The position numbers and the translations under genes were made by a program. Below are positions 1 through 24,393 of a DNA stretch of 26,455 nucleotides, one piece after another. The notes under the pieces were generated by a model. That model was not told where the DNA came from. It worked only from the letters and a program-made list of their open reading frames with translations, and did no database searches. This stretch comes from a virus: UHGV virus genome UHGV-0075053, one strand, 5' to 3'. Every line of letters begins with the position of its first letter. Within the stretch, counting starts at the first letter, position 1.

Positions 1-41
1 GTGGGCCACGGAACCGGTACACCAACAGGCAATGCAGAGCC

Positions 42-67
42 TTCCCCCAAACCAACGTTTATCTCTC
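42..67. other. putative gix/pix-type recombination crossover site upstream of the invertase gene
   Basis: 26-bp TTCCCCCAAACCAACGTTTATCTCTC resembles the gix pattern TTCC..AAACC-NN-GGTTT (left half 9/12 vs gixL from memory); sits directly 5' of the invertase as in Mu gin and e14 pin. Confidence 0.35.
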
Positions 68-121
68 AAATCCTCCCCACATTATCTCAGTACTTTAACC
101 ACTCAAAAGGGAGTATTTTTA

Positions 122-694
122 ATGCTGATTGGCTACATACGTGTGTCAACAAATGACCAAAACACAGATTTGCAACGCAAAGCATTAATGTGCGCAGGAT
201 GTGAACAGATTTTTGAGGACAAAATGAGCGGAACCAAGTCGGAACGTCCAGGCCTGAAACGCGCTTTAAAGTGCCTTAAAAGAGGGGATACATTGGTGGT
301 CTGGAAGCTGGATCGGTTGGGTAGAAGAATGAAACACCTCATTGCTCTCACAGAAGAGCTACGCGCAAAAGGTGTCAATTTTCGCAGTCTGACGGATTCA
401 ATCGATACCAGCACTCCGATGGGAAGGTTCTTTTTTCATATGATGGGTGCACTGGCAGAAATGGAGCGTGAACTGATAGTTGAGCGCACGCTGGCAGGAC
501 TGGCTGCTGCGCGAGCACAAGGGAGAGTTGGAGGACGTCGCCCGAAACTGACGAAGGAGCAGCATGAGCAGATCGCAAGATTGCTCCAGAAAGGGTATGA
601 CAGAAAGCGGCTGGCAATTATCTATGATATTGGACTGTCAACGATCTACCGCTACCACCCTGTTGGGACTGTCATAACGCAACCTGAAATGTAA
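122..694 (+). CDS. pin: serine recombinase, DNA invertase (Pin/Gin/Hin/Cin family)
   Basis: Translation from ATG 122 (MLIGYIRVSTNDQNTDLQR...GDTLVVWKLDRLGR...) closely matches the e14 PinE N-terminal resolvase domain with catalytic Ser in YIRVST; C-terminal HTH region diverges. The ORF-track start at 32 is an upstream extension across the crossover site. Confidence 0.9.
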   Translation: MLIGYIRVSTNDQNTDLQRKALMCAGCEQIFEDKMSGTKSERPGLKRALKCLKRGDTLVVWKLDRLGRRMKHLIALTEELRAKGVNFRSLTDSIDTSTPMGRFFFHMMGALAEMERELIVERTLAGLAAARAQGRVGGRRPKLTKEQHEQIARLLQKGYDRKRLAIIYDIGLSTIYRYHPVGTVITQPEM

Positions 695-834
695 TTCTTT
701 TTCAAATAATGAAACGCCGCGTGGATGCCATTTATCGCACAAGATAGAGTGCATTTATCGCGCGGCGCATCATACAGCCCTTTAGCCTCCAGTTCTTCCG
801 CTTTGCTGTCTTTAATCATGCTGTACCTCACTGC

Positions 835-1260
835 TTAAAACGGTATTCCGTCCCCGTACGGATCATCGTGCTGGCCTGTCTGTTGTTTTGCCCTGTTCAG
901 TGCGTCAGTAGCCTGGCCCTGCTGGCCTTTTTTGCCGCCCGGTCGCGCCGTTCGCGCACTGATTACGCTGTCTGCGATGACCTGCCAGCCCTGCCGCGTT
1001 TCGCCGTTCTGGCCTGTCCACTGGCTTACCTGCATGTTACCCGCCACGCTCACCAGTTCGCCTTTCTGGTGTTTTGCCAGTGCGTCGGCCTGTCTGCCAA
1101 ACGCCAGGACGGATAACCACATCGTCGCCGTTCCGTCATCTGCCTGGCTGCATGGCAGGGGAACCGCCATACTCGCCATCGCCATTTGTGTTCCCTTGCT
1201 GGTGGTCTTTAACTGCGGGTCAGCCACCAGCCGCCCGTAAGCCGCTATCTGTGCTGTCAT
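835..1260 (-). CDS. SSB-like single-stranded DNA-binding protein
   Basis: OB-fold-like pattern (GRLVADPQL...TMWLSVLAFGRQADALAKHQKGELVSVAG...W) and Gly/Gln-rich tail ending DDPYGDGIPF, resembling the SSB acidic C-terminal tip; ATG at 1260 with GGAGAA upstream. Confidence 0.6.
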   Translation of the reverse strand: MTAQIAAYGRLVADPQLKTTSKGTQMAMASMAVPLPCSQADDGTATMWLSVLAFGRQADALAKHQKGELVSVAGNMQVSQWTGQNGETRQGWQVIADSVISARTARPGGKKGQQGQATDALNRAKQQTGQHDDPYGDGIPF

Positions 1261-1323
1261 GCTGTCTGTTCTCCGGTTTTAACGTTGATTGTTACGCTTG
1301 TTTACACCCTTATGGTGAAATTC

Positions 1324-1470
1324 TGCGGGTTATAATCGCACTTTTGCGGGTTATAACTGCCGTTTTGCGGGTTATTTTGGGTATTTTACGGGTTACGATT
1401 TTCCTGCCATTCCTTTAATAATCATATGGATACTGATTTATCCACAGAAATAACCCGCATAACCCGCAAA
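1324..1470. repeat. putative replication origin iterons of the satellite element
   Basis: Direct repeats TGCGGGTTAT(A) at 1324, 1345, 1366 and a degenerate copy at 1388, with exact 21-bp phasing; inverted copies ATAACCCGCATAACCCGCAAA at 1450-1470; lies between the ssb and primase genes. Confidence 0.6.
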
Positions 1471-1496
1471 ATTTTCACCCTACACGCGAGAAAAAA

Positions 1497-3623
1497 TTAA
1501 TCTTCTTCGCTTTCTGGCTGGAACATCAGCACGTAAAAAACATGCTGCTTCCCCCCAATTTTGCCGAGCGCCTTTTTCTTGTAACGGCGATCGTTACCCG
1601 CTTCCAGCATTCCGGCAGCACTCAACGCGCGGGCAAAGTGAGACGGATTAAATCCCTGTGCTATCTCACCCTCAAATACATGCGGGAACGTGTAAAAACG
1701 GAACTCGTCATCTTCGTTTCTGATACTCCCCTTTCTGTATCCGGCAAGCTCTTTAATCGGTAAATCACGCTCGTCAGAGTTGGGCCAGGGAAGGTATCTG
1801 CTGAATCCGAACGACGCTAAAAAAGCCTCTGCCTGTTCAACCATCTGTTTAAACTCCCTGTTACCCGTGCCGAACTCCTTCACCCAGGCATTAAAATTAT
1901 GCTGTATGGCATCGCGGCATTCCTGCTCATCCCAGCCAGTAACATGACCTGAAAGCACAAGCGCGGCCTCCAGTATGGCAAATCGCTCCCCCACACGGTG
2001 AACCTGTTCGCCGTAGCTCTCCGGTATCAGGTTGCGCCACCGCTCACGGCATGTCCTTACCGTGTCCTTTGCCTCCTGCTGGTGTTCTGCCAGCCATTTA
2101 ACCCACTCACGACCCGCCGCCCCGTGATTTGCTGTCCAGGCATCCTTTAACGCGTCTGCGTGCGCCTTTCCGGTGCTGTATTCGTGAAATTGCGTGGCTT
2201 TTTCCATCGGAACGTTAAGCAGGCGGACAAGCTGCCCCGCTTTGACTTTTATCCCCTCCGTTTTGAGGAATGTCTCAACGTCCATTTCTCCGGTGCTGAT
2301 TGCCACCGTTCGCCAGTGTTTTATCTCCCTGTTGCCGCCGTCCTTTGCCCCCTGTAATTTCCCGGAACCGTTAAACAGCGTATAGGCTGACGTGGACACC
2401 TCCCGCGCGTTTCCGGCCTGGCCTATTTCATCCAGGGGTAAAAGCCCGTCATTGTGTGCCTCTGCTTCGTTGGCGATACCTAACGCTGTGCCGTACCAGG
2501 TCAGCCGCTGCGCGTCCGGCTCTCCCCATAAACTTGATGCGATGTTCTGCGTTGTGGTCTTACCTGCCGATGACTGTTCGAAAAGATGTACCCCGAAGCC
2601 GTCAGCGCCCACCAGCCCGATTAATGGTGCGGATAACGATACCGCCACCCCCAGCATCATGGACGGATTACCACCAGCCAGTCGCGCCACGGTGTCGCGC
2701 CAGCCCTCCGCCGTTCCTGCCACGGAATAGCCATTAACAGCAGCAGTTTTTCCGGTAAACAGGACTGGCTTTTCGCAATCACCAATGACCGAACCGTCCG
2801 GCATGATGTACGCGCCAAAATGCCAGCCCGTTGTTGTGCTTAACTGCCATTCCTCATGGCTTCCGCTTAACTGCATCCAGTCAGCCAGGATTGCCCTGTA
2901 TTTACCGTTGGTTGTTACGTTCAGTCCGTGGTCTTTCAGCAGCCGCCAGCCGTCACGGTCGCCAATGCCACCGCACGGAACCGCCATTGTGATGACTTCA
3001 TGATTTGCTGGCTTTTTCCAGCGCATCACGCGGTAATGTTCTTTGCCGATTGTCCCCGTTCCCAGCAGTTCAAGCGGGGAACATAACCACGTCTCAGGCC
3101 GGATAATTTCGCCTGACTGCTTGTCCACTTTTGGCGTAACCCAGAAAACACCATCGGCGCGGCTTTCAACGCGGGGCTTTAATTCATCATCACCCGGGCT
3201 TTCTGTGATTTTTTTCTTTAAGGGCAACACCAGACTTTCCCCGCGCTCGTATTCGTCTTTGAGGCGAGGCAACTGGTCGGATAAATCCGCCGGGCTGGTG
3301 TCAGTTATCCCCGCGTATTCGTATACGGTCTTCACGCCAGCCACAGCCAGCAACGTGACGATCTGTGTAAGGCTACGTTCAGTGATGTGCCCTGCGCGGT
3401 AAATACGCACACACTGACGGCTATCATCAATAATTTGATAACCGGTAATATCTTTCAGGTGTTCATCTGACAGAACGACAGGCGGCACATTGTCGGCGGC
3501 AATATGCTTACCTGCCCATTCCTGCCACTCTTTCGCATGGCTCCACGCATCACTACCCGCAAAGATGATAACCTCCGTCATTTTGTCGGCTGGCTGGTGC
3601 TTTAAGTTTGGTGCGCGCTTCAT
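1497..3623 (-). CDS. primase/helicase-type replication protein of mobile elements (DUF927-like with P-loop)
   Basis: 708 aa; Walker-A-like SSAGKTTTQ; overall resemblance to primase-helicase proteins of E. coli integrative elements (from memory); start ATG overlaps the upstream gene stop (ATGA). Confidence 0.7.
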   Translation of the reverse strand: MKRAPNLKHQPADKMTEVIIFAGSDAWSHAKEWQEWAGKHIAADNVPPVVLSDEHLKDITGYQIIDDSRQCVRIYRAGHITERSLTQIVTLLAVAGVKTVYEYAGITDTSPADLSDQLPRLKDEYERGESLVLPLKKKITESPGDDELKPRVESRADGVFWVTPKVDKQSGEIIRPETWLCSPLELLGTGTIGKEHYRVMRWKKPANHEVITMAVPCGGIGDRDGWRLLKDHGLNVTTNGKYRAILADWMQLSGSHEEWQLSTTTGWHFGAYIMPDGSVIGDCEKPVLFTGKTAAVNGYSVAGTAEGWRDTVARLAGGNPSMMLGVAVSLSAPLIGLVGADGFGVHLFEQSSAGKTTTQNIASSLWGEPDAQRLTWYGTALGIANEAEAHNDGLLPLDEIGQAGNAREVSTSAYTLFNGSGKLQGAKDGGNREIKHWRTVAISTGEMDVETFLKTEGIKVKAGQLVRLLNVPMEKATQFHEYSTGKAHADALKDAWTANHGAAGREWVKWLAEHQQEAKDTVRTCRERWRNLIPESYGEQVHRVGERFAILEAALVLSGHVTGWDEQECRDAIQHNFNAWVKEFGTGNREFKQMVEQAEAFLASFGFSRYLPWPNSDERDLPIKELAGYRKGSIRNEDDEFRFYTFPHVFEGEIAQGFNPSHFARALSAAGMLEAGNDRRYKKKALGKIGGKQHVFYVLMFQPESEED

Positions 3624-3934
3624 TTTGCCTTTCTCCGTTCACGAATAATTTCACGTACTGCCTTAATGCGTTCCATACCTGTAACGCGCATGATTCTGTC
3701 GATGTCGCTTAAGTTCGCTGGTGGTGCTTTGCTTACCAGGGTGAATTCACTCTCAAAACGCATATGTGACGACACGCAGGGATGCGCATAACCTTCGCGG
3801 ATATAGGTCACGCGAAAATCATCGACGGTTTTAATCGTTATCGTGCTGCCGTATTTATCCTGGAAAATATCGCCGGGGCGGATTTCAGGCCGAGCGGAGC
3901 CGCTGGCAGTAAAGCCAGAATTTTTCTTTTTCAT
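3620..3934 (-). CDS. hypothetical protein (104 aa), translationally coupled to the primase
   Basis: ORF with ATGA overlap onto the primase start; GGAG-type RBS; no recognisable motif. Confidence 0.5.
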   Translation of the reverse strand: MKKKNSGFTASGSARPEIRPGDIFQDKYGSTITIKTVDDFRVTYIREGYAHPCVSSHMRFESEFTLVSKAPPANLSDIDRIMRVTGMERIKAVREIIRERRKAK

Positions 3935-3940
3935 GTTTTT

Positions 3941-4159
3941 TTACTCCAGAGGCCGCTTTTTAGCGAAGAGTTCAATATCAGATGTCAGAGAAACCTGTGT
4001 ATTTGCCAGGTCTAACAACAAAGAAATAAGAATTTCCTCTCTGCTATCTGATTTATCGGTGCTAAGGCTGTTCATCCACATATTGACGACTTCCCTGATT
4101 TTTTTCGCAGAGTGCATGGCTTCAAATGCCAGGTCTTCAATATCATGTTTATTTCGCAT
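3941..4159 (-). CDS. hypothetical small protein (start uncertain, 72-94 aa)
   Basis: ORF in the same operon; internal Met at 4159 gives minimal overlap with the upstream gene. Confidence 0.4.
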   Translation of the reverse strand: MRNKHDIEDLAFEAMHSAKKIREVVNMWMNSLSTDKSDSREEILISLLLDLANTQVSLTSDIELFAKKRPLE

Positions 4160-4361
4160 AATCGCCCCCGCGTAACTGGTCTGCACTAACACCCGATTTA
4201 GTGAGCATTTCAGAAAATCCCGCAAGAGTGCTGATAAATTCGTTTTCCATTAAACGGCACTGGCATTTAACCCGGCCTTTTTCCAGATACACCAGTACGC
4301 ACCCCGTATAATCTGACGGCACATTCAGCACTACAGATAAGTGCGCTTCATTATTATTCAT
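4149..4361 (-). CDS. hypothetical small protein (70 aa)
   Basis: ORF in the minus-strand operon; start overlaps the stop of the upstream gene. Confidence 0.4.
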   Translation of the reverse strand: MNNNEAHLSVVLNVPSDYTGCVLVYLEKGRVKCQCRLMENEFISTLAGFSEMLTKSGVSADQLRGGDYAK

Positions 4362-4590
4362 GGCTCACCACCTCCATATCAGCCATGATAATTTTGCTGG
4401 CCTCATTCAGTGCCATATCAGCACTAAGTTGCATTACAGCCAGTGAATGAGGAACGAAAGCCCCGGCATATTCTGTTTCGCTGGTGGCGTGCTTATGCGC
4501 CTTGTCTGCGATAACAGAAATATCAATCAGCGCGTGCATCAGCGTTTTGATGGCTTCGGCGGCTGCGTCCGGACGGGTGTTATTGCACAT
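4354..4590 (-). CDS. hypothetical small protein (78 aa)
   Basis: ORF in the operon; its ATG at 4588-4590 overlaps the stop of the upstream 68-aa gene. Confidence 0.45.
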   Translation of the reverse strand: MCNNTRPDAAAEAIKTLMHALIDISVIADKAHKHATSETEYAGAFVPHSLAVMQLSADMALNEASKIIMADMEVVSHE

Positions 4591-4786
4591 GGAGCACCCC
4601 CTGACGAATACGGGCGGCGAATACCATCACGCAGCCAGCCGGGGATTGCTGGCGTGCTTCCTGTTCGCTGGTGGCCACGATGTGAATCACGCGCGGTTGT
4701 GCGGTGCTCAGGGCGATAAAACGCCAGATGTATTTATTCAGGTTGTGCGAGTCCCGCCCTTGCGGGTGTGTGGTATGATTTCTCAT
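4580..4786 (-). CDS. hypothetical small protein (68 aa), first gene of the leftward satellite operon
   Basis: ATG at 4786 preceded by GAGGT RBS; located just downstream of the palindromic operator region; the longer 301-aa ORF-track version is judged an artefact. Confidence 0.5.
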   Translation of the reverse strand: MRNHTTHPQGRDSHNLNKYIWRFIALSTAQPRVIHIVATSEQEARQQSPAGCVMVFAARIRQGVLHVQ

Positions 4787-4863
4787 AGCTACCTCGATAC
4801 TCTTGCTATCGTTGGTGGTTAGACGCCCTGCATGTGTTGCGAGCACTGCGGGGCGTTGCTTAA

Positions 4864-4964
4864 TTTGAGTGACAAAACTCAAACTGTGCGCACAGATTAA
4901 AATCATGTGTGCGCACATGTCAATACTTAACATCTCATTTTTTTTGCTGTATTGTGTGCGCCCA
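4864..4964. promoter_or_regulatory. divergent promoter/operator region with TGTGCGCACA palindromes
   Basis: 7-bp inverted repeat TTTGAGT-N6-ACTCAAA (4864-4883); 12-bp perfect palindrome CTGTGCGCACAG (4884-4895); second TGTGCGCACA core (4908-4917); degenerate copy TGTGTGCGCCCA (4953-4964); between divergent genes at 4786 and 4992. Confidence 0.6.
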
Positions 4965-4991
4965 TAAAGTCCATTTAAGTGAGGTGCATCA

Positions 4992-5189
4992 ATGTCTAGC
5001 GGTAACACAAACAACAAATCAGCAAAGAAAAATATTCGATTCCCACATGAGCTTATAGATGGGATTGATGCCAGCGTTGAACAAGAAAAATTAACTAATC
5101 CTAGTGCTAATTTTTCCGCATGGGTCTTAGATGCCTGTGGACGCAAATTAAAATATGAACAGCGCCGGAAGGCCAAAGAATCAGAATAA
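4992..5189 (+). CDS. ribbon-helix-helix (Arc/CopG-like) putative transcriptional regulator
   Basis: 65 aa; KNIRFPHELIDGIDASV...ANFSAWVLDAC fits a beta-strand plus two-helix RHH pattern; GTGAGGTG RBS 6 nt before ATG; directly downstream of the palindromic operators. Confidence 0.55.
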   Translation: MSSGNTNNKSAKKNIRFPHELIDGIDASVEQEKLTNPSANFSAWVLDACGRKLKYEQRRKAKESE

Positions 5190-5231
5190 TCACTATCAGC
5201 GCCGTGGTGTGAGTAACTACGGCGCATTGCT

Positions 5232-5420
5232 ATGCAGGACAACACAATGACCGATAAAGAATTGACCAAAACATTATCACCGACACGGAAAAGACGGCGC
5301 AGAAAGATAGAGCATGAATCAGAAAGATTCGCACCTTGTTCGTTTGCTCTTGAGAAATTCCTTAAAGAGCGCAGGAAAAAGCTCTCGTTGCAAACCTTGG
5401 AACGAACCAAATCTGACTGA
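5232..5420 (+). CDS. hypothetical small basic protein (start 5232 or 5247)
   Basis: ORF downstream of the RHH gene on the same strand; Arg/Lys-rich; no recognisable motif. Confidence 0.35.
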   Translation: MQDNTMTDKELTKTLSPTRKRRRRKIEHESERFAPCSFALEKFLKERRKKLSLQTLERTKSD

Positions 5421-5611
5421 TCACATTGCCCACCAGCCGCAAATGTGGCATTGTTGGTGATGCTTTTGTTTTCCCTTGTTCCCACTGGCTACCCTTTTGC
5501 GGTCGCCTTTGTTTTGCCTGTTATCCGGCAATAGTGGCGCTTCGTCACCTGTCTGATATAATTCCACTGCTTATATTCATTTTTTGCGCAGTAGGTTAAT
5601 TGTTCGCAAGG

Positions 5612-5642
5612 GCGCTCCGGCAACGGGGCGCTTTTTGTTTTT
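5612..5642 (+). terminator. rho-independent terminator
   Basis: Stem GCGCTCC/GGGGCGC with 6-nt loop followed by TTTTTGTTTTT. Confidence 0.55.
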
Positions 5643-5800
5643 ACCCACCAGCACAATAAAAATCTTCATTTTCCATTTTTGTAAAATTTCATGCTTTCCG
5701 GACGACTGGTCATATGTCATTTTTTAGCAGAAGATTTTGCCTTGCTGGTGGGTAGCTTCCCGGTCAACACGATGTACCGTATAATCAACACCGCGTGTGG

Positions 5801-6382
5801 TTACTGAATACGCTCACCAAAGTAAAACTCAGGCTGGTATTCACGTATCAGCCTTTTTTCTTCTTCCTCCAGCTCACGCTTTTTGCGCTTACATGCCTGT
5901 AGCTCCCTCCCCTTCTCGCTGGCACTTATCTGATATTGCTCTTTGCGGCGGGAAAAATCCTGTAATGCGCCCCACGGGATACCATAAGCCCCCGTTTTTC
6001 TGATACCCGGTATCACATTTCTGAATACCCAGTTACTGAAACGATGGGCGAACGTGCCAGGAGTAGCAGCTTTGCGACTTCTGGCAATCAGCTTGTAAAA
6101 GCCAGATTCAGAAACGACGCTATGATTTGGATTTCCGCGAATACCGTAAGTTAAAGTTACGGTATTACTTTCATCATCATCCAGAGCTTGCAACGCCATG
6201 CGTGAATTGGATAATTCAAGCGCCGCACAAACATCCTTTGCAACAAACCACGGATCGCCGTTCAGATACACCACACGAACATCCACGCCATCAAAACGTA
6301 GAACGACCTGATCACGAATATCGCAGAATTTTTTCACTGGACGTGCATTCCCCTTGCCCATCATGGCAATATTTTTATTCAT
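5801..6382 (-). CDS. Bro-N domain protein (phage antirepressor-like)
   Basis: N-terminal VRVVYLNGDPWFVAKDVCAALEL motif typical of the Bro-N family; ATG at 6382 with GAGGTAG RBS (ORF-track start at 6385 is GTG). Confidence 0.65.
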   Translation of the reverse strand: MNKNIAMMGKGNARPVKKFCDIRDQVVLRFDGVDVRVVYLNGDPWFVAKDVCAALELSNSRMALQALDDDESNTVTLTYGIRGNPNHSVVSESGFYKLIARSRKAATPGTFAHRFSNWVFRNVIPGIRKTGAYGIPWGALQDFSRRKEQYQISASEKGRELQACKRKKRELEEEEKRLIREYQPEFYFGERIQ

Positions 6383-6401
6383 CACTTTCTACCTCACATA
6401 C

Positions 6402-6429
6402 AAAAAACCCCGCATTGCGTGGTGCGGGG
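6402..6429 (-). terminator. rho-independent terminator (minus strand)
   Basis: Stem CCCCGCA/TGCGGGG with 8-nt loop; T-run on the minus strand (A-run 6402-6407 on plus). Confidence 0.55.
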
Positions 6430-6439
6430 TTGTCGGTAA

Positions 6440-6718
6440 TTACTTATTGGCGTTTTTGTATGGGCTGTTTACTTCCTTTACTCCTGGCGGATGCATAACC
6501 CACCAGAGCACATCAGAGAGCAACCAGGAAACAGACACTTTCCCTAAATGAGCACGAGCAGGAAATGCTCCCTCCTGTTCAAGTACCCAACGTCTGCTTC
6601 TTGAAAGCCCGGTACGATTGGCACACTCATGTTCGCGTATACGGCGATCATACGGTTCGCCATGCTCTTTCAGAATCTGAATGCGTTCTTCGGGTGTAGG
6701 ATAAATAAATTTTTGCAT
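6440..6718 (-). CDS. AlpA-family DNA-binding protein (second copy)
   Basis: ECANRTGLSRSRRWVLEQEGAFPARAHLGKVSVSWLLSDVLWWV resembles the AlpA/Phage_AlpA HTH pattern; start taken at ATG 6718 because the ORF-track start 6748 overlaps the upstream terminator. Confidence 0.55.
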   Translation of the reverse strand: MQKFIYPTPEERIQILKEHGEPYDRRIREHECANRTGLSRSRRWVLEQEGAFPARAHLGKVSVSWLLSDVLWWVMHPPGVKEVNSPYKNANK

Positions 6719-6730
6719 AAAAATATCACC

Positions 6731-6758
6731 TATAAAAAAACCCGCCAAAAGACGGGTT
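6731..6758 (-). terminator. rho-independent terminator (minus strand)
   Basis: Stem AACCCG/CGGGTT with 8-nt loop; T-run on the minus strand. Confidence 0.5.
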
Positions 6759-6781
6759 GATTATATCTCATTTAATTTAGC

Positions 6782-7015
6782 TCAGGGTTTCCATTCACCC
6801 TTTACCCATTCCAGCACCTCAGATAAGCGCCAGACTTTTGTTTGTGGGCCAATACATATTTTTCGTGGAAATTTTCCTTCCTTTTCAAGTAACGATCTGT
6901 GTCTCCTGCCAAGAGCGGTTAACCATGCACATTCATCTTCCTTAATCATCCTGTCGATTGTTTTATCATTTTCAAGTTCTTCACGCGTAACTATTTGAAT
7001 CATTACCGTCACCAC
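6782..7015 (-). CDS. AlpA-family regulator adjacent to the integrase (start uncertain: 7015, 7003 or 6949)
   Basis: ECAWLTALGRRHRSLLEKEGKFPRKICIGPQTKVWRLSEVLEWV matches the AlpA pattern; position immediately downstream of int as in P4-like islands. Confidence 0.6.
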   Translation of the reverse strand: MVTVMIQIVTREELENDKTIDRMIKEDECAWLTALGRRHRSLLEKEGKFPRKICIGPQTKVWRLSEVLEWVKGEWKP

Positions 7016-8204
7016 TAATTAGCTTATTCAGATAGTCATACCACCAATTCATAGCTTCTTTTTTTCTGTCCATATACTGGCTTCTGTTATAAACCCCGGC
7101 AACACCGCCTAATGTGTGCCCAAGCAACTGTTCAACCACATTATGTTCAAAACCATGATCACTTAGCTTTGTGGCAAACACTCTTCGCATATCATGCGCC
7201 GTCCATTTCTCCGAGTGTTTCATCCTTTTCCATGTCTTACCGATAGTTACGCTTGCCGTACACTGACGCATATCAAACCCAATCACATTTTCTTTGTTAC
7301 CTGTTATTTTTTTTAACGTAACTAACCAGTTAAACATGCCATCAGGAATCGGTCTGATTATTTCCCTGCCATTTTTGCTATGATCAGCGGGAACGCGCCA
7401 TAATTTCTTATCAAAATCCCACTCTCCCCAGGAGGACAGTAATACTTCTGACAGTCGACAACCAAAAACTACCAGGAAACGTAAAATAATTCGGTTTTCA
7501 TATGATAATTCGTGATTGTCATAATCAGTATTAATACTTCGCCATAAATCTCTGATTTCATCATCTGTTAAAACCCTGCTTCTTCGCGCAGACTTTTTTC
7601 CCACATCACAGACCTCAAGATCATCAATTTCATGACTAATCGCGTATTTTCTTACCCGACAAAATTTAAGCGCCTGTTTTGATATACGCAACAAAGCTCC
7701 GGCCTGTACAGGTGCTACTTTTTTTATTTTGTCAAAACACTTGATCCACATAGATATAGAGCAATCACTAAGTGGTACATGACCAATCACCGGATAAATA
7801 TGTTTACCAAAGCACTGCCTGATATGTTCTGCTCCCCTACGCTTATCCATTGCATAATTATCAAGCCAGTATTCAAGTGCCTCACGAACGGTAACAGGTT
7901 GCAAGGTGGCTTCCCGTTCAATTTTTATCTGAATCCGTGGATCTCTGCCCTCCGCAAGCCAGGTTCGACACTGATCGCGCATCTCTCTCGCTGATTTGAG
8001 ACTCAGATCAGGATATTTCCCAAGTGTCAGCCAGATGGGCGCGGTTCCCCTTCCCGCCAGTCTGTAAAAGAAAACAAAACTAACACATCCGTATTTACTG
8101 ACCCGTACCGAAAGCCCGTTACCATCAGCGATGGTTTCCTGCCTCTCACTCCTGCGCCCAAGCAGGGAACGAAGTTTTTTATCGCTCAGTTTGTTTAGCG
8201 CCAT
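6981..8204 (-). CDS. int: tyrosine integrase, P4-like
   Basis: N-terminal arm-binding pattern (LSDKKLRSL...GNGLSVRVSKYG...FVFFYR), C-terminal catalytic region with HxxR-like LLGH and conserved Tyr context; start set to ATG 8204 (MALNKLSDKK). Confidence 0.85.
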   Translation of the reverse strand: MALNKLSDKKLRSLLGRRSERQETIADGNGLSVRVSKYGCVSFVFFYRLAGRGTAPIWLTLGKYPDLSLKSAREMRDQCRTWLAEGRDPRIQIKIEREATLQPVTVREALEYWLDNYAMDKRRGAEHIRQCFGKHIYPVIGHVPLSDCSISMWIKCFDKIKKVAPVQAGALLRISKQALKFCRVRKYAISHEIDDLEVCDVGKKSARRSRVLTDDEIRDLWRSINTDYDNHELSYENRIILRFLVVFGCRLSEVLLSSWGEWDFDKKLWRVPADHSKNGREIIRPIPDGMFNWLVTLKKITGNKENVIGFDMRQCTASVTIGKTWKRMKHSEKWTAHDMRRVFATKLSDHGFEHNVVEQLLGHTLGGVAGVYNRSQYMDRKKEAMNWWYDYLNKLISGDGNDSNSYA

Positions 8205-8209
8205 GTGAT

Positions 8210-9403
8210 TTATAACCCGTTTTTGCAATACACAGTGCAATACACAAATGATGAAAACAGCCAGAACCTTCCAGAAAAAACAAAAACGACGAACAAGAAA
8301 AAATCTTTTTCTTTCATTTGGTTACTAAAAAAATCAGGACAGGTCGCACTGTTGTTACGGCGTGATGTTACTTTCTTGGTAAAAAAATTCACCCGCGCAG
8401 AGACCTGCTCCTTCGCTTTTTTCGCCAGACGACGCAGATCATCCCAGCGTTTACAGATGCCCAGGCCAGGATTCGCTTTCTGCCAGACCGTTTCATCAAA
8501 CGGATCATCTCCCTCATCAAGCGTGTAAATGATCGCAAAGTAAGAGTCGTCTTTTACAGCGCCCTCCACGTCGCTGTTATAGCCTCGCAATACCTTGATG
8601 GCGTAATCACGCTGCTCGTAACAAATCCCTTCCTTGTTAAAGCCAGCCGTGGTGATACCAAATAACAGGGACTGCAGACGGGCACCGGTTGCCGTTTCCA
8701 GAACGTCCCACACGTCGCGGGTTTTATGTGCATGCAGCTCATCAATAATGGCGCAGTGGATGTTCAGACCGTCCAGGTTGTTTGCATCCGAGGAAAGCGG
8801 TTCAAATTTTGATGCGCTCTGCTCCTGGTAAATCGCCAGCTTGTTGAAATCAAACAACCGCCCGAGTGTCGACCGGGCTTTTCTGACCATATTTTTGGCG
8901 TCTTCAAACACGATTCTGGCCTGGTCAAGCGTGGTTGCGGCTGAATACACCTCAGCTCCGCCTTCACTATCTGCCCCCGTCATATACAGACCGATACCCG
9001 ATGACAGGGTTGATTTTGCGTTTTTACGGGCAACTTCGTTGTATGCTGTCCGGAACCGGCGCACCATCACCGGGCGTCCACTGCCATCGCTGCGCATGAC
9101 AACTTCCCCGGTTTCTTCATTCACCAGCGGAATGACAAAACCAAAAATATTAATGAGGATAAACACATGCCAGTCCATCAACTCAATGGGCTGACCTGCC
9201 AGCGCCCCTTTCACATGGGGTACAAATTTGTAGAAATTAAGGATGTGCTGTGCACGAGGTTCACTGAAATAAATCCCCCGCTCTTCGCCGTACTTCAGAT
9301 CATCAAGAAAACGCTGGCAGGCCAGACGGACAAATTCGCCAGCAACAATTTCTCCTGCAACAACACGTTCGGCGTAGCGGATCCCGTCAGCCACTTTTGC
9401 CAT
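8210..9403 (-). pseudogene. terminase large subunit, N-terminal ATPase portion only (C-terminally truncated)
   Basis: N-terminal ~340 aa look terminase-like; the last ~55 aa (about 8210-8400) are low-complexity read-through; full-length TerL would be far longer; ends next to the integrase gene. Confidence 0.7.
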
Positions 9404-10032: not shown

Positions 10033-10383
10033 TCAATTGATGCGTTCGCGCGCTGTTTTTGCTTTATGACAGGGCCAGCACAGACTCTGCAGGTTACTGT
10101 CTGCATCCGTGCCACCATGAGCTTTCGGAATGATGTGGTCCACAGTTCTGGCTTCAACGGCTCTCCCATTGCGCAGGCAGTTCTGACACAGATGATTATC
10201 ACGCTTCAGTATGCGCGCACGTATGGCATCCCATTTCGAGCCATAGCCACGCTGGTGGCGGCTCAGTCCGCGTTGATGCTGTACCCATCCTTCGCCACGA
10301 TGTTTATCGCAGTAACCAGAACTGTCTGTGGTTGTACCTGCACATCCACGCTTACGGCAGGCGCGTGGGATTCGTGGGGGCAT
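10033..10383 (-). CDS. phage HNH endonuclease
   Basis: CRKRGCAG...YCDKH...DHIIPKAHGGTDADSNLQSLCWPCHKAKT is a classic HNH motif; start set to ATG 10383 (MPPRIPRACRKRGC). Confidence 0.8.
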   Translation of the reverse strand: MPPRIPRACRKRGCAGTTTDSSGYCDKHRGEGWVQHQRGLSRHQRGYGSKWDAIRARILKRDNHLCQNCLRNGRAVEARTVDHIIPKAHGGTDADSNLQSLCWPCHKAKTARERIN

Positions 10384-10605
10384 ATGTACTCCAATGAAGA
10401 AGCCACCGACATAGCCTCCTCCATTCATAGTGAAACTATTTTCATCTACCCAGTAATGAATTCTTTGTAGAGTTGTGATCAATACAACTCACTAATGGAG
10501 AGGCTTGTCCAACACGTTGGACAAGTTTCCTGTTTGATTTACTGGACACTATAGAAGGACAGAATGCCTTCATCACTCGAATAACATCAATTAAGGAGGT
10601 TCAAC

Positions 10606-10728
10606 ATGTTTCATTCCACAAATCATCAGGCTGTAATTATGGCTGCATCAGCTTGTGCCACAGACCTTTTCCGCTTCACTTTGAGCCTGATTCATTTCTA
10701 CCTGACCGGCTCGCCTCTATCTTTTTAA
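10606..10728 (+). CDS. unannotated small ORF (40 aa) with a near-consensus Shine-Dalgarno
   Basis: TAAGGAGGT 6 nt upstream of ATG 10606; encodes MFHSTNHQAVIMAASACATDLFRFTLSLIHFYLTGSPLSF; below the 60-aa cut-off of the ORF track. Confidence 0.4.
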   Translation: MFHSTNHQAVIMAASACATDLFRFTLSLIHFYLTGSPLSF

Positions 10729-10908
10729 TCCCCGCTTTATCCAAATTGCATTGCCAGAATGCCGACAACAGACTGACATTCAAATCCTGACTACCTCCAA
10801 TAGGCTGAGCATCCACCTATATAGTTTTAATTTTCATCAATCCATTTAACTATCGTTTAATTGTTGTCACATAGGATTCTGCCATTTTTAACAATGCAGG
10901 ATAATAAG

Positions 10909-11202
10909 ATGAAAAAAATGTTGTTTTCTGCCGCTCTGGCAATGCTTATTACAGGATGTGCTCAACAGACGTTTACTGTTGGAAACAAACCGACAGCAGT
11001 AACACCAAAGGAAACCATCACCCATCATTTCTTCGTTTCGGGAATTGGACAGGAGAAAACTGTTGATGCAGCCAAAATTTGTGGCGGCGCAGAAAATGTT
11101 GTTAAAACAGAAACCCAGCAAACATTCGTAAATGGATTTCTCGGTTTTATTACTTTAGGCATTTATACTCCACTGGAAGCGCGTGTGTATTGCTCACAAT
11201 AA
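10909..11202 (+). CDS. bor: Bor/Iss-family outer-membrane lipoprotein
   Basis: MKKMLFSAALAMLITGCAQQTFTVGNKPTAV... matches lambda Bor essentially throughout (from memory); lipobox LITGC; opposite strand to the lysis genes as in lambda. Confidence 0.9.
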   Translation: MKKMLFSAALAMLITGCAQQTFTVGNKPTAVTPKETITHHFFVSGIGQEKTVDAAKICGGAENVVKTETQQTFVNGFLGFITLGIYTPLEARVYCSQ

Positions 11203-11233
11203 TTGCATGAGTTGCCCATCGATATGGGCAGCT

Positions 11234-11710
11234 CTATCTGCACTGCTCATTAATATACTTCTGGGTTCCTTCCAGTTGTTTTTGCATAGTGATCAGCCTC
11301 TCTCTGAGGGTGAAATAATCCCGTTCAGCGGTGTCTGCCAGTCGGGGGCTGGTTGCATTATCCACGCCGGAGGCGGTGGTGGCTTCACGCACTGACTGAC
11401 AGACTGCTTTGATGTGCAACCGACGACGACCAGCGGCAACATCAGCGCGCAGAGTTTCATTTTCAGCTTTCGCATTGGCTAATTCTCTCGAGTACTTTGC
11501 ATCGAGTGCAGCAACATCACGCTGACGCTGCTGCATGTCAGCGATGGTGGCGATCGCCTGCTTCAGCTCACTGACTTTTTTATCACGCTGTTCTTTGTAG
11601 GCGATGGCGTTATCACGGTAATGATTGACCGCCCACGACAGGCAGACGATGATGCAGATAACCAAAGCATAAATAATCGCGGCGACTCTGCTCACTGCTC
11701 TATCCCCCAA
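11234..11710 (-). CDS. Rz: i-spanin Rz
   Basis: Near-identical to lambda Rz over most of its length ([21 protein letters not shown]...[13 protein letters not shown]). Confidence 0.9.
11293..11475 (-). CDS. Rz1: o-spanin Rz1 (embedded in Rz in the +1 frame)
   Basis: [42 protein letters not shown]... matches lambda Rz1; lipobox VVGC and proline-rich region. Confidence 0.85.
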
Positions 11711-12225
11711 CAGGCTAATGCGCTTTCCTGGTCACGACGAATAACCTGTCCATAGCAGTTATTTGAACGTATGCGGCAATCGCGCCCACCATCTTTTATC
11801 CACCAGCGAATCGCCTCGCATGCGCCCTTACGATCACCGGCATTCAGCCGCTTATAAAACGTCGACGGGAAACACTTACCGGGGCCAATGTTATAGGGAC
11901 AAAATGACGCGATACCCGCTTTTTGTGGTTCGGTCAGTGGTACTTTAATATTGCGCTCCACCCATGCCAGCGCCTTATCACGCTCAATGGCGTTGACCTG
12001 GTCGCATTTTTCCTTCGACAGTTTCATACCGGGAAAAACGGGTTTTCCATCCACCATCGTGGCACCCCGACAGATGGTCCAGATGCCGGACCCATCGCGG
12101 TATGCCGTTGTGTGGTTACCTTCTTTTTCATCCAGAAACTGGTCGAGAATATCAGGCGCGGGCGCACCGACGGCAATCAGTGCCAGAACGGCAGCCGACA
12201 GGCCGTATCTGATTTTTGCGTTCAT
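11692..12225 (-). CDS. phage lysozyme, SAR-endolysin type
   Basis: N-terminal hydrophobic signal-anchor ([14 protein letters not shown]) followed by a lysozyme-like domain; position between holin and Rz. Confidence 0.8.
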
Positions 12226-13151: not shown

Positions 13152-13226
<75 letters not shown>

Positions 13227-13342
13227 ATCCTGGAACTCGGCTACCTGATTTTCATTCTGCACTGAATATCGAGAGAAGCTCTCTTTATTCGAGCCGGTAA
13301 GCGAACTTATCGTCTCGGGCTACGCCATCGCGTGGCCGAAAT

Positions 13343-13427
<85 letters not shown>

Positions 13428-13435
13428 GGACTTGA

Positions 13436-13511
<76 letters not shown>

Positions 13512-13513
13512 AC

Positions 13514-13590
13514 TGGACCGCCACCGGGGACTCGAACCTCGCACACTCAACTTAAAGGGTTGACGCTCTTTCCTGATGAGCTAGTGGCGG
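13514..13590 (-). tRNA. atypical tRNA-like gene, anticodon UUU (Lys-like) with unusual anticodon loop CCUUUAA
   Basis: Cloverleaf can be drawn: acceptor CCGCCAC/GTGGCGG, D-arm GCTC/GAGC, anticodon stem TCAAC/GTTGA, T-loop TTCGAGT, 3' CCA; but C at position 33 and an A-C mismatch in the T-stem are non-canonical. Confidence 0.45.
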
Positions 13591-13591
13591 T

Positions 13592-13667
13592 TGGTGGCCC
13601 TTGCTGGATTTGAACCAGCGACCTGGCGATTATGAGTCGCTCGCTCTCACCACTGAGCTAAAGGGCC
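13592..13667 (-). tRNA. tRNA with CAU anticodon, ileX/ileY-like (tRNA-Ile2 type; Met not excluded)
   Basis: Reverse complement GGCCCTTTAGCTCAGTGGTGAGAGCGAGCGACTCATAATCGCCAGGTCGCTGGTTCAAATCCAGCAAGGGCCACCA resembles E. coli ileX from memory. Confidence 0.7.
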
Positions 13668-18345: not shown

Positions 18346-18501
18346 TTACTCCTCAGGTTCGTAAGCTGTGAAGACAGCGACCTCCGTCTGGCCGGTTCGG
18401 ATTCGTACCTCGCAGAGGTCTTTCCTCGTTACCAGTGCCGTCACTATGACGGTTAAACAGATGACGATCAGGGCGATTAACATCGCCTTTTGCTGCTTCA
18501 T
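18346..18501 (-). CDS. hokD: Hok/Gef-family small membrane toxin (HokD/RelF-like)
   Basis: MKQQKAMLIALIVICLTVIVTALVTRKDLCEVRIRTGQTEVAVFTAYEPEE matches E. coli HokD from memory; start set to ATG 18501. Confidence 0.9.
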   Translation of the reverse strand: MKQQKAMLIALIVICLTVIVTALVTRKDLCEVRIRTGQTEVAVFTAYEPEE

Positions 18502-19125
18502 AGCCTGCTTCTCCTTGCCTTTCGGCACGTAAGAGGCTAACCTAGATTTGCCGTTCATAGATTGAGCCTCAGATTAATGTTAAGCGTCTTGCAGGACGCG
18601 TAATGTTAACTGGGGCTTTTCTCTATCTGCCTTTGGTGTTCATGCCTGAGACAGATAGCCTCAAGCACCCGCAGCCATTCTACTTAACTCCCGTTACCTC
18701 GCCAATATAAAATCAATCAGAAAAGCGATCCATAAGAACAACAGCAAGACAATAAATTGCCATTACAGCTGCAATAGCCAGCGCACATTTGAGAACCAGC
18801 ACGACAACCTCCTGTATTGGACGTACACCAGTTCTGATAAATATGAGGCTGTCTCATCATTGATGAGATACAACTATTGGGTATAGTTTCTGTGATTTTG
18901 TTCTGTAGAAATGGAACACAACAACCAGTCACCACCAGCACTTCTTTAAATACGCCAAGTCCGACGCAAGCTAACCTTCTAGTCCGCTTTGAGCGAAAAG
19001 CAGACTGTCACGCGTTGAAGTTAATTGTATTACTTAGATAAACACTATCATTTTCCTGACGTTAAGTTGTATCTTTGATAGGATTAAAAAACGTATAGAT
19101 AGCTTATGCTACTGAGGGAATAAAA

Positions 19126-24013: not shown

Positions 24014-24342
24014 TAGCTAACCAACGAAGCTAAGGTTGGTAATTAAGGAGTTCTCCACGGGTGAAGTGGAGTGCGTGCGCCGGACACGGGTGAACATCCG
24101 GCACTGACAGTTTACTGAAAGGATATTTCTCTGAAAAGTCAGAGCATAACGCGAAAGTACACGGAGAAGCTCGTCTCTCTGTACTTTGTCGTTAAATTTA
24201 ATTCGACCGTGCGCTTCCGGTTGTGGCAATCCGCGAAATGGCGCGGCGGTAAGTATGGCGGGGTTATTCCTTCCCCTTGAGGACACCGGGTTGTCAGGCT
24301 GACCATACGCTTAAGTGACAGCCCCGCCACAATATCCATGTG

Positions 24343-24393
24343 TAGTCTTTGGTGGCATCAGTTCTACTCCGTGACTGCTCTGCCGCCCTTTTT
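24343..24393 (+). ncRNA. dicF: DicF small RNA (ends approximate)
   Basis: GGTGGCATCAGTTCTACTCCGTGACTGCTCTGCCGCCCTTTTT matches the 3' part of E. coli DicF including its terminator hairpin (from memory); about 175 nt upstream of dicB. Confidence 0.65.

Follow-up and report, generated by a model that had tools for sequence, protein, structure and literature searches.

The stretch analysed here, the virus genome UHGV-0075053 (26,455 nt; hereafter the window), carries between an HNH gene and bor an open reading frame (ORF) of 40 codons, here called ORF40, which an original prediction had proposed as an unannotated small gene with a near-consensus Shine-Dalgarno (SD) sequence, preceded by a 9-bp hairpin. 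The ORF is real and conserved, but that reading misses two promoters for lytic-phage RNA polymerases, the context of the hairpin and an antisense overlap with the spanin gene Rz1, and it is the two promoters flanking the hairpin that make the locus unusual (Table 1). The elements themselves were found much as described: the SD TAAGGAGGT is separated by TCAAC from an ATG that opens 40 sense codons, MFHSTNHQAVIMAASACATDLFRFTLSLIHFYLTGSPLSF, closed by TAA in the gap between the HNH gene and bor, and the stem arms CTTGTCCAA and TTGGACAAG enclose a CACG loop, with the hairpin starting one base to the left of where it had been placed. Below, the region from the first promoter to the end of ORF40 is referred to as the cassette.

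The first promoter is of the T7 group and corresponds to the phi4.3 type of Berlinvirus. Berlinvirus S523 has a promoter copy, ATCAATACAACTCACTAATGGGACAGAC, that agrees at every base with the 21-mer ATCAATACAACTCACTAATGG (10478-10498) of the window, and the homologous site in phage BA14 is annotated 'promoter phi4.3'. In the S523 genome there are four copies of the 18-mer AATACRACTCACTAATGG and six of the core CTCACTAATGG, every one on the coding strand; in the window the T7-type site is present as a single copy, on the + strand only. Its likeness to the lytic phage runs from about -19 to about +2 and the flanks are without homology; from +3 to +6 the site differs from the phage copies (GGAGAG, as against GGGACA or GGGAGA). 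Position -11 is either A or G among prophage copies, and both forms are present in S523.

The second promoter, of the SP6 group, corresponds to the Vectrevirus (K1E/K1-5) type. The 21-mer ATTTACTGGACACTATAGAAG (10537-10557) is unique in the window even when up to three mismatches are allowed, and 100 shuffles gave no match. An identical 21-mer occurs four times in the K1E genome (13925, 15932, 24431 and 41717), always intergenic and on the coding strand, and the major capsid gene has one of these copies directly before it. In IMG/VR, a scan showed this 21-mer to recur many times among K1E/K1-5-like Vectrevirus genomes of about 44 kb, with up to three sites per fetched stretch. The two promoters of the cassette stand in tandem, 57 nt apart and on the same strand, on either side of the hairpin. 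Both S523 and K1E encode a single-subunit polymerase, and the start sites predicted here, G10497 and G10554, follow from the usual numbering of T7 and SP6 promoters.

Table 1. Positions of the features at and around ORF40, in window coordinates.
Feature	Position	Strand	Details
T7-group promoter, Berlinvirus phi4.3 type (-17 to +6)	10480-10502	+	CAATACAACTCACTAAT followed by GGAGAG; predicted start G10497
Stem-loop	10500-10529	+	9-bp core CTTGTCCAA (10504-10512) / TTGGACAAG (10517-10525), CACG loop (10513-10516); 13 pairs with G-U
SP6-group promoter, Vectrevirus (K1E/K1-5) type	10537-10559	+	ATTTACTGGACACTATA followed by GAAGGA; predicted start G10554
5' stem GAAGG-N8-CCUUC	10554-10571	+	Start of the SP6-type transcript; RNA fold of 10554-10640
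SD TAAGGAGGT	10592-10600	+	5 nt before ATG
ORF40 MFHSTNHQAVIMAASACATDLFRFTLSLIHFYLTGSPLSF	10606-10728	+	Predicted single-helix micro-protein; TAA at 10726-10728
Rz1 o-spanin remnant, SfIV type, C-terminal ~40 codons	10676-10816	minus	Antisense to ORF40 codons 24-40
HNH gene	10033-10383	minus	Pfam HNH
bor	10909-11202	plus	Pfam Lambda_Bor
Rz	11234-11710	minus	Right of ORF40
Lysozyme	11692-12225	minus	Right of ORF40

The first clue to this arrangement was an alignment of window positions 10507-10557 with an intergenic region of KpnP_VR702, a virulent SP6-like podophage of Klebsiella, where GTCCAACACGTTGGAC...GATTTAGGGGACACTATAGAAGAAG is followed by an SD and then by a gene. K1E carries an allelic hairpin, GTCTCACGTGTGAGAC, at the same place. 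Similarity of the hairpin, spacer and promoter to SP6-like phages lies at z = 15-27 against shuffles, and in the leader and the ORF it is no longer significant; judged by sequence, the hairpin and promoter form a unit that is homologous to one intergenic region of SP6-like phages. The hairpin does lie upstream of the ORF, as originally predicted, but it is placed inside the promoter pair and has this lytic-phage ancestry, so that it does more than merely precede the ORF. It occupies +3 to +33 of the T7-type transcript, upstream of the SP6-type promoter, and in an RNA fold it forms a dominant 13-bp stem at the 5' end of the transcript from 10497. Changes in the two arms that appear compensatory were considered as evidence of covariation, and this was dropped: since both alleles already occur ready-made in lytic phages, the changes may be imports. 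The SP6-type transcript is predicted to begin with a short stem of its own, as the promoter copies of lytic phages are also followed by a short 5' stem-loop. Beyond this 5-bp stem the leader is no more structured than shuffled sequence (z = +0.99), and the SD is therefore predicted to be unpaired.

That ORF40 is a gene is indicated by its conservation. The original prediction had looked to indels or stops in homologous regions as evidence to the contrary; all 57 unique homologues retrieved via the ORF are open (40 codons in E. coli and Shigella, 38 in Klebsiella), and the 19 unique versions retrieved through the upstream promoter only, independently of the ORF, all have 40 codons and no indel. 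The ORF stays open even where the overlapping Rz1 is a dead remnant. The 9-mer SD occurs once in the 26 kb window, and its one-mismatch versions are found five times where 3.7 are expected; because these are at chance level, the SD is not significant by itself, and it is its position and conservation that count. It is kept in SfIV and in almost all variants, and other relatives have AAGGAGG or AAAGGAG at the same distance.

The strongest evidence that ORF40 is a gene comes from distant relatives, which carry unrelated ORFs at the same place. These relatives were anchored on a conserved Rz1 motif just past the stop, which gave 81 unique upstream regions. In Klebsiella and other temperate phages, at least four unrelated groups of hydrophobic ORFs of 32-41 codons occupy the ORF40 slot, each with a strong SD, the same stop position and T7-group promoter-like sites of its own on the ORF strand; examples of the peptides are MLKISLLSTIVNHKITFAVIYFLLSLIHFYLTGSPLSF, MLEVLNSLAPFAPAINAIVILICSIIAKYYGVLPLPF, MSQNQFFELAKAYADGINAIISLICLLIAKHYGVLQYF, MSHIEIIQLIDSYVLLATHIISLIIVCRKLIADLSRRS and MTEKNKMICQLAIVYAPLITIFAKVILGALWITAFGFPLPF. 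The anchored set holds 53 distinct peptide calls of 32-68 residues with an SD, those above 41 residues being upstream-extended calls in the same frame. Only one variant (the L286 type, common to four loci) lacks an ORF in the slot. The slot for a micro-ORF is thus conserved while its content is swappable. A 29-nt Rz1 motif, GGCARTGCAATYTGGATAARGCGGGGATT, is present in loci of the E. coli/Shigella type and of the Klebsiella type, all of which were retrieved with that motif as the query.

The promoters show a comparable pattern. In 73 unique relatives, we compared the 332 nt before the ORF with six T7-group consensus sequences and scored a site as promoter-like if it matched one of them at 16 or more of 23 positions. 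On the ORF strand there were 1.29 such sites per 332 nt, as compared with 0.03 on the opposite strand and a background of 0.035 in the same loci, a strand bias of about 40-fold. One or two sites reaching this threshold, all on the same strand, were found in 63 of the 73, and some relatives have further, weaker sites that can be seen by eye. The SP6-type alleles differ at the specificity positions -12 to -10, which read CTG, GGT, ATG or CTT; three of these four (ATG was not checked) also occur outside the ORF-bearing prophage loci, in SP6/K1E-like genomes. Temperate phages of Klebsiella pneumoniae (ST101-KPC2phi6.1, ST13-OXA48phi12.5 and Kp4864-1) carry instead the K11-like site AATTAGGGCCCACTATAGAGA, the T7-like site TAATGCGACTCACTATAGAGAGA, and others. 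In one IMG/VR locus (L134, 2778261354_000001) both promoters are intact and the sequence diverges immediately after the GAAG of the SP6-type site (TAAGCGTGCAGCAAGAACCG...); this may reflect an insertion or other cargo under the same promoters, and the contig ends about 50 nt later.

The peptide encoded by ORF40 is modelled by AlphaFold as one helix over residues 3-34 (predicted local distance difference test score, pLDDT, 83). The original prediction described its C-terminal half as hydrophobic, and this stands only in a moderate form, as the highest Kyte-Doolittle value over 17 residues, 1.37 at residues 10-26, lies under the usual transmembrane threshold. Most relatives have a best window of 1.5-2.45, comparable with TisB, Ldr and Hok. 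Neither ORF40 nor seven of its relatives has a credible match in Pfam, NCBIfam, PHROGs or PADLOC, and a contig scan with the 20-mer that spans SD and ATG gave only unrelated matches in Firmicutes and in metagenome-assembled genomes. The ORF was said to be unannotated, which is true of RefSeq, where PGAP places no annotation under the cassette in any of the listed rows from about 600 E. coli genomes; the GenBank phage record ON470612, by contrast, has it as a hypothetical protein. We also considered whether the N-terminal half is the fused remnant of an SP6-like gene 18, and this was rejected since the local alignment is not significant (P ~0.05-0.13), with the Klebsiella form marginal.

Two variants of the frame may be mentioned here. 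In alleles of the O157:H7 type (L004), a substitution in the equivalent of ~10565-10605 removes the in-frame TAA upstream of the ATG, so that the frame opens to an ATG in the leader and yields a 54-codon version (MPSSLESHQLRRFNMFHS...), with the SD-proximal ATG unchanged. Disrupted copies also exist, since one E. coli copy (P0006) is broken after codon 35 by foreign sequence (...LTGFAPIFPDTCYHLTHYWPAAADIPVA), which resembles an end of IS2.

On the opposite strand, the 3' part of ORF40 overlaps what is left of an Rz1 gene. Shigella phage SfIV matches 10380-10795 of the window at 85.6% identity, from the HNH start into the 3' end of Rz1; the C-terminus of SfIV Rz1 reads ...LDLNVSLLSALGQCNLDKAGIRRIEASRSGRSESGSK and that of the minus-strand frame ...QDLNVSLLSAFWQCNLDKAGIKKIEASRSGRNESGSK, and the latter frame matches the PHROG Rz-like spanin phrog_3001 with E = 8e-8. 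We regard it as a remnant because the signal peptide, N-terminus and lipobox are absent although the C-terminal domain is present. It was left when a lambda-type bor-Rz module replaced lysis genes of the SfIV type. Relatives differ in their Rz1 partner, which has its full length and its lipobox at some loci and is reduced to a stump of 39-62 aa at others. Sister phage records in GenBank annotate the antisense 46-codon frame as a 'DUF4347 fragment'. In two Klebsiella temperate phages the Rz1-like piece is a free-standing ORF of 57-58 aa (L306, 1888-2064; L307, 1786-1959), separated from Rz by another small gene, and the conserved block there consists of the cassette and the C-terminal ~40 codons of Rz1 rather than a working spanin pair.

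Sequence variation within ORF40 has to be read with this overlap in mind. In codons 21-40, six of the eight variable sites of the promoter-retrieved set are at the third position (binomial P = 0.02), a test that the Rz1 overlap confounds. Position 3 of ORF40 faces position 2 of Rz1 in the antisense register, so that the changes in the C-terminal half are silent for ORF40 and alter Rz1 (K/R, N/S), whereas changes silent for Rz1 would strike position 2 of ORF40, and only one of these was observed. Codons 2-20 fall into two main haplotypes and their recombinants.

The cassette is widespread: searched for with the stretch 10440-10605, it was found in 628 of the 5426 complete genomes of E. coli (~11.6%), with sequence type 131 (ST131) EC958 (100% identity) and O157:H7 (94%) among the carriers. 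It remains intact while its neighbours are exchanged: on the right it is followed by bor, by an intact Rz1 or by Rha, and on the left it is preceded by an HNH gene with a P27-type terminase, by a lambda-type nohD or by PBSX-type terminases. In the window, a P27-type small terminase and a large terminase lie to the left of the HNH gene, and from the genes adjoining ORF40 we take the window to be a lambdoid, HK97-like prophage read against its own late operon. In two SfIV-type E. coli prophages, the interval from the HNH gene to the cassette has on its minus strand an annotated hypothetical protein of 64 aa, WP_109161702.1 (L005, 829-1023; L229, 4672-4866), whose counterpart is not annotated by PGAP in close relatives of the window type (L007, EC958).

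Signals for host transcription were looked for at the same locus. A scan of 10200-11300 for sigma-70-type promoters predicted none, where shuffled sequences average 2.3, and Rfam, run on the whole window, placed no family at the locus, its matches (sok, DicF and five tRNAs) being elsewhere. The host RNA polymerase probably does not fire the cassette. Within the 26 kb of prophage that are visible, no ORF is long enough for a T7-type polymerase, the longest being a DUF927 protein of 708 aa.

In sum, the promoters are identical to multi-copy promoters of lytic phages, are oriented towards the ORF and are arranged as they are in those phages. We suggest that 10480-10728 forms a self-contained expression cassette, probably defensive, which a superinfecting phage would fire with its polymerase and which could act as a tripwire for abortive infection or for blocking entry; we give this reading about an even chance of being right. 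It is favoured because it explains the multi-specificity of the promoter array, the host-matched alleles, the lack of a host promoter and the strong translation signals. From the sequence we infer that the promoters would fire in vivo, that the peptide would be membrane-active and that the invader would be harmed. A Berlinvirus-type or K1E/SP6-type podophage that infects the lysogen would make its single-subunit RNA polymerase, which would transcribe the cassette strongly and so lead to strong translation of ORF40, each transcript being predicted to consist of a short 5' stem-loop, an unstructured leader, the near-consensus SD and ORF40. The promoter array would serve as the sensor and the micro-protein as the effector. 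The peptide, acting against the invader at the inner membrane, could do so in a few ways. First, it could depolarise the membrane. Second, it could trigger lysis prematurely, either of which would amount to abortive infection. Finally, it could block genome entry where this is driven by the polymerase.

It is possible, although we propose it only tentatively and think it somewhat doubtful, that such cassettes represent a new class of immunity, in which the DNA sensor is an array of promoters, each specific for the single-subunit polymerase of another group of lytic phages, that drives a swappable micro-peptide, and the invader's polymerase transcribes its own poison. The promoter alleles would then be expected to track the local phages, so that E. 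coli and Shigella have the K1E, SP6 and Berlinvirus types and Klebsiella the K11-like ones. Should the proposed mechanism hold, a resident element would recognise the transcription specificity of the invader rather than a phage protein, a nucleic acid or metabolic damage, and would do so with an effector of only ~40 residues. This would matter for phage therapy, because roughly one complete E. coli genome in nine has the cassette, ST131 and O157:H7 among them, as do prophages of Klebsiella pneumoniae, and podophages of the K1-5/K1E-like and T7-like kinds are favoured therapeutic agents against these hosts. For annotation, the locus reveals a whole micro-ORF family that has strong ribosome-binding sites and yet goes unseen by PGAP, Pfam, PHROGs and PADLOC.

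Several observations weigh against a polymerase-fired, peptide-based defence. The T7-type site reads GGAGAG rather than GGGAGA from +1 to +6, and directly behind it lies the 13-bp hairpin with its U-rich tail, which could attenuate the transcripts. The Klebsiella-type sites TTAAGACTCACTATTAGG and GTTACACGAGTAGGA are never multi-copy in any IMG/VR genome, and no cognate lytic phage was found for them. The N-terminal half of ORF40 (codons 2-20) is without codon periodicity, with 10, 9 and 5 variable sites at positions 1, 2 and 3, respectively, and in the E. coli allele this half is under relaxed constraint; in the other peptide groups the codon-position tests are weak (P = 0.03-0.27). The window peptide is moreover the least hydrophobic of the family (best window 1.37), and given this and the missing periodicity the E. 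coli allele could be a weakened version. The PADLOC models gave no match at E <= 1, and neither the peptide nor the DNA string is in two published supplements, one of ribosome profiling (Ribo-seq) in enterohaemorrhagic E. coli and one of Enterobacteriaceae micro-ORFs. Finally, ORF40 is not followed by a terminator for a phage polymerase; transcription would then continue through bor and, in antisense, through the lysis genes, and it could be the RNA that is active instead of the peptide.

One alternative is that the locus is a recombination scar, at which promoters and hairpin were picked up in mixed infections and have been hitch-hiking since, with a functionless ORF that is fortuitously antisense to the Rz1 tail. 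A mosaic junction is indeed present, as lambda-type bor DNA takes over from the Rz1 remnant at ~10795, and the plain homology of the hairpin and promoter unit to an SP6-like intergenic region, the occurrence of both prophage hairpin alleles in lytic phages, from which they were possibly imported, and the lack of coding periodicity in the N-terminal half of ORF40 would all fit such an origin. We nevertheless consider it unlikely. It is hard to reconcile with two promoters of different subfamilies that stand in tandem and co-oriented just before a near-consensus SD, with a strand bias of about 40-fold across the 73 relatives, and with a T7-type similarity that is limited to the promoter. Nor does a scar predict an ORF that is open in every lineage or unrelated small hydrophobic ORFs in the same slot, and the third-position bias supports the ORF40 frame over that of Rz1.

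A second alternative takes ORF40 for an ordinary prophage gene transcribed by the host, either a modulator of lysis and spanins or a type I toxin-like gene with the Rz1 transcript as its antisense partner, the resemblance to phage promoters being irrelevant. The overlap with the 3' end of Rz1 is found in every relative and the C-terminus co-varies with the Rz1 tail, which would suit this view, as would the size, single helix and hydrophobicity, in which there is a resemblance to the controls TisB, Ldr and Hok. Systems of this kind do live in the prophage, since Rfam detects a sok antitoxin RNA (110 bits; 18496-18670, minus), which implies that another part of the window holds a hok/sok type I toxin locus. 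However, the scan upstream of ORF40 (10200-11300) detected no sigma-70-like promoter and Rfam has no family at the locus; in the window and in most E. coli copies, the ORF and promoters are intact even though Rz1 is a dead remnant, far from any late promoter context; and exact copies of lytic-phage promoters matched to the host genus are left unexplained. We therefore hold a host-transcribed gene to be improbable.

A third possibility, which we regard as quite improbable, is a satellite-like hijack for the benefit of the prophage, in which the invader's polymerase primes replication or makes long transcripts that cross bor and run antisense through lysis and regulatory genes, so that the RNA matters and not the peptide. 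The lack of a phage-polymerase terminator after the ORF would agree with this, and T7 promoters act as origins of replication in T7. The transcription, however, heads away from the packaging and structural genes and is antisense to those for lysis, the degradation of host DNA by T7-group phages leaves little scope for a prophage to escape, and a consensus SD with a conserved small ORF right after the promoters is not explained. A further reading, the most direct extension of the original prediction, would make the hairpin a + strand insulator or rho-independent terminator and the SD and ORF a separate chance feature. The consensus scan does call the hairpin terminator-like (13 pairs, then the T-rich CTGTTTGATT), but we hold this to be very unlikely, since no upstream + strand gene needs termination, the homologous hairpins of K1E and KpnP_VR702 have no T-run, and the hairpin lies inside the promoter pair.

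Some further features of the window were recorded. The large-terminase gene (8210-9403, minus) ends after ~349 residues, inside the nuclease domain, where relatives have an intact terL of 1758 nt followed by portal. Next on the same strand are a tyrosine integrase with an Arm-binding domain (6981-8240), AlpA (6440-6748), a Bro-N protein (5801-6385), DUF4222 (3620-3934), the 708-aa primase-type DUF927 protein (1497-3623) and SSB (835-1260), and a serine resolvase lies on the + strand at 32-694. Positions 1-8240, with a junction near 8210-8240, look like an integrative element related to P4 or to the phage-inducible chromosomal islands (PICI) that has inserted into terL. Rfam also finds DicF (58 bits; 24337-24388, plus) in the early region of the prophage. 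Five clustered tRNA genes (13155-13667, minus) lie downstream of the antiterminator region on the strand of the late operon, and the near-identical prophage of EC958 has only two tRNA genes at that place.

The proposal that an invading phage's polymerase fires the cassette can be set beside several known systems. In 2006, Chen and Schneider reportedly described prophage-like islands of nine enteropathogens in which T7-like promoters formed 12 clusters, two or three to a cluster, and no polymerase gene was present. The islands are said to measure 4-13 kb, with promoters placed to transcribe two to five phage-related proteins, and reportedly were discussed as phage-dependent elements; E. coli O157:H7 and Shigella, both of which carry the cassette, were probably among the genomes scanned. 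The ORF40 locus shares with these islands the tandem T7-like sites within a few hundred bases and the lack of a polymerase gene in the window; it very probably belongs to the same class and perhaps corresponds to some of the same clusters. To our knowledge, that work did not describe a micro-ORF family with a consensus SD, the overlap with Rz1 or the identity to Berlinvirus and K1E promoters, and we know of no experimental follow-up or mechanism for these orphan promoters, a lead that the explicit promoter and ORF coordinates given here make directly testable. A review links the T7-like promoter islands of 2006 to the sit island; no sitABCD was seen beside the cassette in the contexts inspected.

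The closest structural parallel is found in the expression units of the Autographiviridae, such as the phi10/gene 10 leader of T7 and the gene 18 leader of K1E, whose parts, order and spacing the locus reproduces, with an identical promoter and a hairpin homologous to that before K1E gene 18 and KpnP_VR702 gene 21. It differs from those units in that its promoters belong to two subfamilies, the phage that carries it is temperate, lambdoid and HK97-like and lacks such a polymerase, and its leader and ORF have no detectable homology to the lytic-phage gene. The product recalls the type I toxins Hok, TisB, Ldr and ShoB in having fewer than 50 residues, one predicted helix, a moderately hydrophobic character and a convergent antisense overlap. 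In contrast to these, Rfam finds no antisense small RNA at ORF40, the only antisense feature being the 3' end of Rz1; there is no predicted sigma-70 promoter, the hydropathy is below the usual transmembrane threshold, and control would lie in promoter specificity rather than in an antitoxin. As regards position, the cassette shares its neighbourhood and strand, between the lysis and packaging genes, with the bor/iss moron of lambda, although bor is a lipoprotein of 97 aa with its own host promoter and the cassette occurs with or without it.

The logic proposed for the cassette has precedents as well. In the P2 Ogr and P4 delta systems, and in the derepression of PICI and Staphylococcus aureus pathogenicity islands (SaPI), the transcription machinery of an infecting phage trans-activates resident elements, and an engineered 'triggered-suicide' defence was reportedly published by Djordjevic et al. 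in J Bacteriol in 1997. All of these have in common with the proposed tripwire that the element is silent until the invader supplies a transcription factor. We know of no natural defence system in which the polymerase of the invader is sensed through its promoter. Compared with P2 Ogr, P4 delta and the PICI and SaPI elements, the trigger proposed for ORF40 would be the whole RNA polymerase of the invading phage, recognised by way of its promoter.

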